From: Parvularcula sp. BBD 1991-13 | GTDB lineage: Bacteria > Pseudomonadota > Alphaproteobacteria > Caulobacterales > Parvularculaceae | DNA: 64,000 nt | Assembly: GCA_001657385.1 (NCBI GenBank) | Contig: LYSZ01000010.1 | Coordinates: 32,394-96,393 of the forward strand | Direction of reading: 5' to 3' | Shown: piece by piece, positions 15,911 to 36,854 of the stretch | Position numbering within the stretch: the first letter of the stretch is position 1 | Layout of the letters: each line of letters begins with the position of its first letter | Made by a program: the position numbers and the translations under genes | Notes under the pieces: generated by a model | Database searches by the model: none | Told to the model about the DNA's origin: nothing | The model's input: only the letters and a program-made list of their open reading frames with translations

Positions 15911-15944
15911 AAAAAAAACGCCGCCGGCGAACCGGCGGCGTTTT
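15911..15944. terminator. Bidirectional intrinsic terminator between trmH-like and MarR genes
   Basis: A8-CGCCGCCGG-CGAA-CCGGCGGCG-T4. Confidence 0.85.
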
Positions 15945-15988
15945 GATCGGCAAGGCGCGACCGGCTTTGCGCGGTCTCGCCTGCGGGC

Positions 15989-16546
15989 TCAGCGCTTGGC
16001 GGACTTGCGTTTCGCTGTCTTGCGCTTGGCTTTGGCCGGGGTCTTGCGCTTGGCGGCTTTCTTGGCCGTCTTGCGCTTGGCCGGCGCTTTTTTCTTCGGC
16101 GCGGCGGGCGTTTCTTCCATGGCGTCAAGCGCTTCGGCGTAAGCGCGCAGCGCCTTCATGAACGCGGCCTGCTGCGTTTTCGGCAGGACGGCCAGGGCGG
16201 CGTTTTCCGCTTTGGCGACCTTGCTGTTGGCGGCGGTCAGCATGCGTTTGCCCGCGGCGGTGATGGAAACGGCGTTGGCGCGCGCGTCTTCTTTTGTGCG
16301 TTTGCGAGAAAGCAGGCCCTTTTTCATCATGCGGGCGATCATGTCGGCCAGCGTGGAGCGGTCGATGCCGGTGTGGCGCACGAGGTCGGTCTGGCTGAGG
16401 CCCTCATTGGAGGCGACGACATGCAGGACTTCGTACTGGCGCGGGGTCGGGCCGCTGGATCCGACTTCCTTGGAATAAAGATCGTGAGCGTATTGCTGCG
16501 CGCGGCGCAGGAGGTGCCCCGGGGAGGTTTTAAGCGAGTAAGCCAT
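15989..16546 (-). CDS. MarR family regulator with Lys/Arg/Ala-rich histone-like C-terminal tail
   Basis: GHLLRRAQQ, TPRQYEVL, LSQTDL..GIDRSTLADMIARM, EDARANAVSIT; tail PKKKAPAKRKTAKKAAKRK. Confidence 0.9.
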   Translation of the reverse strand: MAYSLKTSPGHLLRRAQQYAHDLYSKEVGSSGPTPRQYEVLHVVASNEGLSQTDLVRHTGIDRSTLADMIARMMKKGLLSRKRTKEDARANAVSITAAGKRMLTAANSKVAKAENAALAVLPKTQQAAFMKALRAYAEALDAMEETPAAPKKKAPAKRKTAKKAAKRKTPAKAKRKTAKRKSAKR

Positions 16547-18302: not shown

Positions 18303-19562
18303 TTATTCGGAAAAGCCCGCAAGCGCGCGCGCGAAGCTCCGCGCGCGGAAGGGCTGAAGGTCGTCGACGCCCTCGCCGACGCCGATATAGTGCACGGGCA
18401 GGGCGAACTCGTCGGCGAGCGCGACGAGCACGCCGCCGCGGGCGGTGCCGTCAAGCTTGGTCATGACGATGCCGGTCACGCCGGCGATGTCGGTGAAGGC
18501 CCGGGCCTGGGCGATGGCGTTCTGGCCGACGGTGGCGTCGAGCACCAGGATGACGTCGTGCGGCGCGGTCTCGTCGAGCTTCTTCACGACCCGCACGATT
18601 TTCGCGAGTTCCTCCATGAGCGCCGACTTGTTCTGAAGGCGCCCGGCGGTGTCGATGATGAGAACGTCCGTGTTCGCCTCTTGCGCCGCCTTGATCGCGT
18701 CGAAGGCGAGGCCCGCCGCGTCCGCGCCGACGTCCCGGGCGACGACCGGCGCGCCCGTGCGCTCGCCCCACACGCTCAGCTGTTCGATGGCGGCGGCGCG
18801 GAACGTGTCGCCGGCGGCGAGCATGACGCTCAGGCCCTCGTCCTTGTATTTCTGCGCCAGCTTGCCGATGGTGGTCGTCTTGCCGGCGCCGTTGACCCCG
18901 GTCATCAAGATCACATGCGGGCGACGGCTGCGGTCGATCTCGAGCGGGGTTTCCAAAGGGCTCAGAACGCCCGCCACGTCCTCGGCAAGGGCGGTGCGCA
19001 CCTCCTCGTCCGTGACGGTCTTGTCGAACTTGTCGCGGGCGAGTTTATCGGTGATGCGGGTCGCGGCCTTGACCCCGAGGTCGGCGGTGATCAGGAGGTC
19101 GGTCAGGTCCTCCAGCGTGTCGTCGTCCAGCTTGCGCTTGGTGAAGATGGCGGCGACGCCTTCGGTCAGTTTTCCGGAGGTCTTGGAAAGCCCCGACGTC
19201 AGCCGCGACAGCCAGCCGGTTTTCTTCGGCTTGTCCGCGGACGGTTCCGGCGCGCTTTCAGGAGCGCCGCTTTCTGGGCCGCTGGGCGGCGGCGGAACCG
19301 CTGTGGCCGCATCCGTCCGGGGGGCGTTTTCGGTTTGCCCGCCGTCCTTGTTGTCTGTTGCGCGCGTTTCCGCTTCCTGCGTTTCGGATTTGGGCGTTTC
19401 GGTTCCCGGCGTTGCGAATTCGGGCGCCGCCTGTTGCGCGTCGTCCGGCGCCTCGCTTTCGGGGCCGCGGTCCCCGGTCTCCGTCGGATCAGCCGCGGCG
19501 GACTGATCGTCCGCCGGCGCTTTTTTTCTTCCGAACAGTCCGGAAAAGAATTTACCCGCCAC
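18303..19562 (-). CDS. ftsY: Signal recognition particle-docking protein FtsY
   Basis: [44 protein letters not shown]; acidic N-terminal region. Confidence 0.97.
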
Positions 19563-34869: not shown

Positions 34870-34906
34870 CCCTCCAGCCATGGTTTTATCCCTTTTCGAA
34901 AAAAAA

Positions 34907-34971
34907 TTATCGTTTTTCGGCAAAAACCGCTTTACATCGTTTTTCGATAAGGCTATATCGAAAATCAACAA
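34907..34971 (+). promoter_or_regulatory. Sigma70 promoter (TTTACA-17-TATATC, GCTATATC) with three (A/T)(T/C)ATCG-N5-C(G/A)(A/G)(T/C)AA operator-like sites
   Basis: -35 at 34931-36, -10 at 34954-59; sites at 34907-23, 34934-50, 34955-71. Confidence 0.6.
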
Positions 34972-35160
34972 GACGGCGGATCAACCGCTGCACGGACAAC
35001 CCGGTCAAAAGATCTCGCAGGAAGCCTGCGCAAGAGGCGATAGACCGGGACGGCCGCAGGCGAAAGACCTGAACCCGGATCAGCATGAGTTCGCGCATAA
35101 GCGGACAAAAATATAAACGAGTAAAAAAATGAGCGGCAGGGAAATCCCTAACCGCTCAAG
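34965..35160 (+). ncRNA. Candidate structured 5' leader or sRNA
   Basis: Nested stems 35000-06/35043-49, 35016-21/35025-30, 35057-60/35068-71, 35130-36/35152-58. Confidence 0.4.
35123..35158 (-). terminator. Intrinsic terminator-like hairpin with U-tract on the minus strand
   Basis: TGAGCGG..GGGA-A-ATCCC..CCGCTCA preceded by A7 on the plus strand. Confidence 0.55.
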
Positions 35161-35214
35161 AAAATCAGAATGAGTTGCGTCAGATCAACACGTCAAAAGA
35201 AAAGGAGAAACACC

Positions 35215-35349
35215 ATGCGTCACCAACACTCGAACGATAGCTTTGGAAATTTCGCCGGTCTTGTCAATAGCCTGATTGCTTTCGCCGCCGTAACCGTCAT
35301 TGGCGCGGGCTACCTTTCGGCTCTTGGCGCCTTTGCGGGGATCGCCTGA
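35215..35349 (+). CDS. Small hydrophobic protein, 44 aa (MRHQHSNDSFGNFAGLVNSLIAFAAVTVIGAGYLSALGAFAGIA)
   Basis: Strong RBS AAGGAGA before ATG, one TM-like segment, TGATG coupling to next ORF; below the ORF track cutoff. Confidence 0.7.
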   Translation: MRHQHSNDSFGNFAGLVNSLIAFAAVTVIGAGYLSALGAFAGIA

Positions 35350-36648: not shown

Positions 36649-36854
36649 TGGCGATTTCCGTCAAGCTGGACCGCGTTCTTCTGGACAAGGGCATGTCGCT
36701 GACCGAGCTGTCGGAGCGCGTCGGCGTGACCATCGCCAATCTGTCCATTCTCAAGACCGGCAAGGCCAAGGCGATCCGTTTTTCCACCCTGGAGGCGATC
36801 TGCCGGGAGCTTGACTGTCAGCCCGGGGACATTCTCTTTTTCGACGACGGCTAG
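36648..36854 (+). CDS. XRE/Cro HTH transcriptional regulator (YozG-like)
   Basis: MSLTELSERVGVTIANLSILKTGKAKAIRFSTLEAICRELDCQPGDIL; TGATG coupled. Confidence 0.93.
   Translation: MAISVKLDRVLLDKGMSLTELSERVGVTIANLSILKTGKAKAIRFSTLEAICRELDCQPGDILFFDDG

Follow-up and report, generated by a model that had tools for sequence, protein, structure and literature searches.

Positions 34965-35214 of the window, the whole 64,000-nt stretch of DNA analysed here, are likely to constitute a genuine long 5' leader of an operon coding for small peptides, DUF2975 proteins and a helix-turn-helix (HTH) regulator, and the conserved core of this leader is not a ligand-sensing or self-switching RNA. Instead, the conserved 3' third of the leader would be common to the sense mRNA and to a convergent, non-coding antisense RNA. 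The explanation which we regard as reasonably probable is that a single-copy, family-restricted cis-antisense small RNA (sRNA) covers the Shine-Dalgarno sequence (SD) and AUG of the first gene of the operon, coding for a peptide of 44 amino acids, and is confined by an intrinsic terminator on the minus strand. The production of this RNA, its ends and its effect are what we infer from sequence features of the locus and its homologues.

The leader is located in a 342-bp gap flanked on one side by the minus-strand rdgB/Ham1 gene (ATG at 34872) and on the other by a plus-strand operon of five co-oriented genes, which extends to position 36854. The first cistron, present in the list of open reading frames (ORFs) at 35215-35349, codes for the 44-aa single-helix membrane peptide and overlaps, by TGATG in the window and by TAATG in most relatives, a second gene coding for a 49-aa peptide with a signal peptide-like N-terminus. 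The remainder of the operon codes, according to Pfam, for two DUF2975 proteins and an HTH_26 (YozG-like) regulator, giving the order peptide-peptide-DUF2975-DUF2975-HTH_26. No Pfam family is matched above threshold by the 44-aa peptide, the sole sub-threshold match being to DUF3149 (E 0.029), and a comparison with the ESM Atlas provided no informative match. Variation at the third codon positions identifies the plus frame as the coding frame of this gene, whose SD (GGAG, 35204-35207) precedes the AUG at 35215. An alternative start at the in-frame ATG at 35170, giving a product of 59 aa (MSCVRSTRQKKRRNT...), was rejected: it has no SD, and AACGAG is found in place of AATGAG in a whole subfamily, suggesting that this upstream ATG is probably not used.

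The peptide operon is syntenic beside rdgB across genera. A set of 44 distinct homologous leaders was gathered, to which four more from distant genera of the Parvularculaceae were later added, bringing the comparison to 48 related genomes from at least five genera; the genus label for the window's DNA and its close relatives is Hyphococcus/Marinicaulis. Across the 48 genomes, conservation of the intergenic region is limited to three parts, namely a promoter/operator block, a hairpin at 34974-34990, and an A-run and hairpin at 35123-35158 together with the 56 bases that lead to the start codon. The A-run before the latter hairpin comprises six to nine A residues in the relatives and seven in the window. 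When the gap was compared by BLAST with 60 relatives, matches were obtained in 35 of the 36 genomes of the Hyphococcus/Marinicaulis genus, and these aligned in two blocks only (query 1 to ~120 and ~232 to 331).

The AT-rich promoter/operator block (34885-34966, plus strand) is almost invariant in the 35-locus alignment (A3), where it shows a mean column identity of 85% and 52 invariant columns; it is better conserved than the flanking genes and is kept in Amphiplicatus and three further genera. It contains TTTTCGAAAA, two copies of ATCGTTTTTCG and a CGATA-N6-TATCG palindrome lying across the -10 element, so that the predicted sense promoter, with its -35 element CTTTAC (34930-34935), 17-nt spacer and -10 element CTATAT (34953-34958), is embedded in palindromes of the TTATCG/CGATAA type. 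These promoter elements fit CTTGAC-N17-CTATAT, which we take to be the alphaproteobacterial sigma-70 consensus. Since this consensus promoter occurs just upstream of position 34965 and is almost invariant across genera, a transcription start site (TSS) at about 34964-34967 and a long leader are both likely, in agreement with the earlier note, in which the TSS had been assumed at the 5' end of the leader; no competing promoter-like site was found near 35200. The leaders of the relatives range in length from 135 to 297 nt. AT-rich inverted repeats upstream of YoaS-YozG (DUF2975 + HTH) operons have been proposed to represent operators of the HTH repressor (bioRxiv 10.64898/2026.09.15.751765). Other families of the order have related palindromes as well, which precede a small peptide gene at locus L044 and rdgB, on the same strand, at locus L045.

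The conserved hairpin at 35130-35158 is selected to fold on the minus strand, where it reads as a predicted intrinsic terminator with a stem-loop from 35158 to 35130 and a U7 tract from 35129 to 35123. A run of six to nine U residues is invariably present on this strand in all 44 relatives. Among 31 distinct versions of the hairpin, the minus strand accounts for all 32 G·U pairs (in 21 versions), the plus strand having none. The minus strand also exceeds the plus strand both in the total number of base pairs (323 vs 288) and in summed folding energy (-559 vs -468 kcal/mol), with the minus-strand fold being the more stable in 28 of the 31 versions. Internal mismatches of the plus-strand fold, of which there are up to three per hairpin, are almost all A·C and thus equate to G·U pairs on the minus strand, although this pattern could also arise where an A-rich, T-poor setting biases the substitutions. 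In the RNAalifold consensus of the minus strand, the position just above the basal stem is occupied by U·G in 24, C-G in 12 and U-A in four cases, and it is paired in 40 of 40 on this strand vs 16 of 40 on the plus strand. The same minus-strand bias is observed in the four distant genera. In genus g20, the minus-strand stem is a perfect one of 9 bp (-16.9 kcal/mol, z -4.3), whereas the plus-strand fold (-7.1 kcal/mol, z -0.9) is no better than shuffles. A simple scan for terminators in the leaders of L053, L021 and the window placed every match on the minus strand, with seven terminator-like hairpins found on this strand in L053 against 1.5 expected. Pairing of the 5' arm of the hairpin with a downstream GAG-YY-GC motif on the plus strand was considered by eye and rejected as far weaker than the hairpin itself. 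The ORF list holds no minus-strand gene upstream that would end at the 35123-35158 terminator.

The body of the predicted antisense RNA (35159-35231, minus strand) coincides with conserved block 2 of the intergenic region. Its complement takes in the final 56 nt of the leader, with the SD, as well as the AUG and five to six opening codons of the peptide gene. Its predicted promoter (35239-35267, minus strand) comprises a perfect -35 element TTGACA (35262-35267), a 17-nt spacer and a weak -10 element AAAGCT (35239-35244). On the coding strand, the -35 element reads TGTCAA and occupies codons 16-18 of the peptide gene, where it is invariant in all 43 aligned genes. This invariance covers the third base of codon 16, though the encoded residue varies between I, F, V and L, as well as the third base of Val codon 17; at the other invariant residues of the peptide the third positions vary freely. 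TGTCAA is likewise kept in four further genera with strongly diverged peptides. Its invariance could also serve another role at the nucleotide level, such as that of a protein-binding site. The -10 hexamer, fixed at 17 nt from TTGACA, reads AAAGCT in the window but GAnnTT in most of the relatives; its conserved positions are A2 and T6, two or three of the six positions match TATAAT, and the hexamer fails a consensus scan. The conserved -10 bases coincide with conserved Asn-Phe/Val codons and may reflect constraint on the protein. The weak -10 is the weakest link of the antisense proposal.

The predicted antisense RNA is of constant length, at 95-111 nt, and would extend in the window from about 35231 to 35123 (~110 nt). 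It is C/U-rich and, according to RNAalifold, unstructured apart from the terminator, and Hfq is encoded in the genome. An antisense ORF ending before the terminator (35364-35185 in the window) was rejected, as stops occur in all three antisense frames at 44 of 44 loci. A covariance model, R1, was built from the predicted antisense RNA sequences and matches exactly one copy in the window's genome. Matches to this model were obtained in all 17 sampled genomes of the genus and in four of 12 genomes from other genera of the Parvularculaceae, with none in 121 genomes from other families of the order. In the distant relative L044, the promoter/operator is the same and a small peptide gene is present, but the leader is of ~55 nt and has no terminator; the long leader and the terminator therefore look like an addition within the Parvularculaceae.

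The leader had been described in the earlier note as a structured RNA with mutually exclusive pairings, and the elements named in that description are all present in the sequence. CCCGGTC (35000-35006) and GACCGGG (35043-35049) enclose the inner hairpin CGCAGG-AAG-CCTGCG (35016-35030), a second CCCGG is found at 35074-35078, CCGCT at 34985-34989 has its counterpart AGCGG at 35100-35104, and the hairpin TGAGCGG...CCGCTCA spans 35130-35158. The region 34965-35214 is also structured as supposed, folding at -77.9 kcal/mol compared to -55.9 +/- 4.2 kcal/mol for dinucleotide shuffles (z -5.28, 0 of 200 as good); the folding z-score of the reverse strand is -3.07. The many GGA motifs noted before amount to eight, counted by eye in 250 nt, but with approximately seven expected from base frequencies they represent no excess. 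The statement that the leader matches no riboswitch was borne out by a search of Rfam at permissive thresholds, in which nothing on either strand came near the gathering score. Membership of a known RNA family was rejected on the same grounds, all Rfam matches being at chance level on both strands. Two further candidates were discarded. A CsrA/RsmA-titrating RNA is contradicted by the failure to find PF02599 in the 98%-complete genome, in which controls were found, and by a GGA count at composition level, while for a repeat or mobile element no second copy was found in the genome by BLAST or with the covariance model.

Covariation among homologues is retained for two hairpins of the leader, which are conserved as structures, but not for the pairings within 35000-35104, which have no homologue. 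The 5' hairpin (CGGCGG-AUCAA-CCGCUG, 6 bp, 34974-34990) is situated ~10 nt past the predicted TSS. In this hairpin 88.9% of cells are paired and 11 cells have both sides changed, a result equalled in 0 of 500 shuffles, while slid controls are 17-59% paired. A completely different stem occupies this position in genus g20. Wobble pairs occur in both orientations, with no clear strand preference. This hairpin is followed by a hypervariable middle (34991-35122) of GC-only hairpins and A-rich linkers, which holds the 35000-35049 hairpin and its proposed competitors. Query positions ~127-231, within this middle, found no match in the 60 relatives, and the middles of the 44 leaders, 23-181 nt long, are not alignable from one lineage to another. 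Because this segment has no homologue and such variable length, covariation cannot support the proposed switch pairings (35000-35049, 35074-35078 and ~35100). The terminator scan identified no terminator-like site on the plus strand of the leader, with no U-run after any plus-strand hairpin, and most leaders, with 3-11% T, are too T-poor to provide a CUCC-type partner in an SD-sequestering helix with the AAGGAG SD. There is therefore no riboswitch expression platform of either kind, since a plus-strand U-run is lacking and the purine-rich SD can find no pairing partner in the T-depleted leader. As regards the novel cis-regulatory RNA put forward in the earlier note, the long leader is real, but a riboswitch-like switch is not supported.

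The base composition of the middle is strongly skewed. Pooled middles consist of 37.9% A, 28.3% C, 29.0% G and 4.8% T, against 17.6% A and 17.9% T genome-wide, with stems of G-C pairs only and loops and linkers made up of A. Depletion of T on the plus strand extends to all 44 leaders (3-15% T, ~40% A), and start-like triplets number 26 in the pooled middles against ~156 expected. Both strands of the middles fold better than shuffles (mean z -3.5 and -3.1), and neither strand is singled out when folding energies and 1x1 mismatch types are compared. Hairpin modules are duplicated in tandem in places, for example in L053. Whole hairpin modules, of the type CTCCAGCGAAGGCTGGAAAACAAAAGACCCGG, distinguish the middles of the close relatives L053, L032, L034 and L036 from one another, and the middle therefore grows and shrinks by tandem duplication. 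In the 24 middles of at least 80 nt, A-tracts begin at recurrent lags of 9-11, 19-21 and 28-31 nt, a periodicity of ~10 nt which could reflect helical phasing (DNA curvature) or simply the size of the modules. A coding function for the leader was rejected, as leader lengths are not multiples of three and no start is conserved, as was a GTG-started, K/R-rich frame of some long leaders, which is lost in L025.

T-poor leaders do not form a genome-wide class: about 70-110 strongly A/T-skewed windows were found in the genome, most of which are Lys-rich coding sequence. Two strong A/T-skew outliers within the analysed window, at 15939-16161 and 19254-19497 (minus strand), are both coding, one representing a Lys/Ala-rich basic tail (AKRKTAKKAAKRK...) after a regulator-like domain and the other belonging to a large protein, in which it forms a low-complexity stretch that is acidic and rich in Pro. 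Elsewhere in the genome, an A-rich, T-poor non-coding stretch with GC hairpins (G000:C21:482973-483125) precedes a gene for a small membrane protein (MLGWALTFFVIAII..., by eye DUF1328-like) and may be a second leader of similar style. Candidate explanations for the T depletion are a polar array of weak minus-strand terminators that spares the sense transcript, a composition inherited through duplication of the modules, the avoidance of promoters and start codons, and DNA curvature.

The antisense RNA alone leaves the T depletion of the whole leader unexplained. It is possible, as a tentative extension, that the leader is a polar transcription insulator built from tandemly duplicated modules of an A-tract and a GC-only hairpin, combined with a dedicated antisense RNA regulating the first cistron. 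Each module would then supply a hairpin and U-tract on the minus strand and stop antisense polymerases, sense polymerases would pass as no U follows the plus-strand hairpins, and the size of the array would change between species (23-181 nt). The main rival to the antisense RNA is a plain insulator role of the terminator, in which the terminator and the weaker modules would stop stray antisense transcription and read-through into the divergent operon and rdgB promoters, with no discrete antisense RNA transcribed from a promoter of its own. This role, which we judge rather unlikely, would account for the strong minus-strand terminator signature, for the additional terminator-like hairpins found in L053 on the minus strand only, and for the weak -10 of the proposed antisense promoter. 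It leaves unexplained, however, both the invariant TTGACA at synonymous sites and the tight conservation of the 56 nt between the terminator and the AUG, and no upstream minus-strand gene is in need of termination at this location.

It appears distinctly unlikely that the hairpins act in the sense mRNA, whether by stabilising or processing it or by binding Hfq or another protein on an A-rich, U-free leader, with the minus-strand bias stemming from A-biased substitution. Such a role would fit the better plus-strand z-score, the covariation of the 5' hairpin with plus-strand G·U pairs in several species, and T depletion as a strand-specific property of the whole leader. Against it, the plus-strand fold of the conserved hairpin contains as many as three A·C mismatches and in genus g20 is no better than shuffles, and the invariant A-run makes sense solely as a minus-strand U-tract. 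A new riboswitch-like or self-switching leader, operating through the mutually exclusive pairings of 35000-35104, is very improbable. Its pairings are present, the fold is significant and no known family accounts for the leader, yet the segment concerned has no homologue in any relative and varies eight-fold in length, and the T-depleted leader allows neither a sense terminator nor an SD-sequestering partner. It had been set beforehand that a lack of structural covariation in homologues would count against this switch, and with no such covariation obtainable the reading is largely refuted.

According to the favoured cis-antisense explanation, sense transcription would start at the operator-controlled promoter (34930-34958) and run through the leader, passing the terminator hairpin because no U-run follows it on the plus strand. 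The convergent promoter inside the peptide gene would make the antisense RNA from near 35231, and pairing of this RNA with the SD, AUG and first codons would repress translation and/or lead to cleavage of the duplex; the two converging promoters could, in addition, interfere with each other. The terminator would stop antisense transcription short of the divergent operon and rdgB promoters, and the middle of the leader would represent fast-evolving filler of duplicated GC-hairpin/A-linker modules.

Type I toxin-antitoxin systems, such as hok/sok and symE/symR, employ cis-antisense sRNAs which lie over the 5' UTR or ribosome-binding site of small membrane-peptide genes. The locus in the window resembles these systems in its small hydrophobic 44-aa peptide, its long structured leader and the predicted convergent non-coding RNA of ~100 nt, which has its own intrinsic terminator and is fully complementary to the SD and AUG. 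Unlike in those systems, the peptide gene is the leading cistron, with translational coupling to the next, of a single-copy operon of five genes that is inherited vertically, and the peptide matches no toxin family. A self-contained two-gene toxin-antitoxin module, often multicopy or mobile, was rejected for this locus, which is present in one copy per genome, is syntenic and has the peptide gene as the first of five. The predicted RNA would thus act in the manner of the antisense partner in type I toxin-antitoxin loci while falling outside the definition of that family. The conserved hairpin is comparable to unidirectional Rho-independent terminators in that a GC-rich stem-loop is followed by a tract of six to nine U on one strand only, and in that compensatory and wobble changes keep the stem. 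It differs from the usual terminators of this type in being placed within a 5' leader whose gene is on the opposite strand and in the variable array of weaker hairpin/U-tract modules which comes after it. As in the YoaS-YozG operons (bioRxiv 10.64898/2026.09.15.751765), AT-rich inverted repeats overlap the promoter of a DUF2975 + HTH_26 operon, but here the DUF2975 genes are set apart from the operators by an insertion comprising a long leader depleted in T, the antisense terminator and two small peptide genes.

The asymmetry between G·U and A·C pairs can assign the strand of the conserved hairpin without transcript data, and the leader, extremely poor in T and growing by modules, is testable as a unidirectional terminator array. 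The predicted RNA of ~110 nt, its promoter and its terminator provide a handle on the control of the peptide. In the Parvularculaceae, a previously undescribed, family-restricted pair of a predicted antisense RNA and its leader would thus head a widespread, uncharacterised type of operon coding for DUF2975 proteins and a YozG-like HTH regulator.
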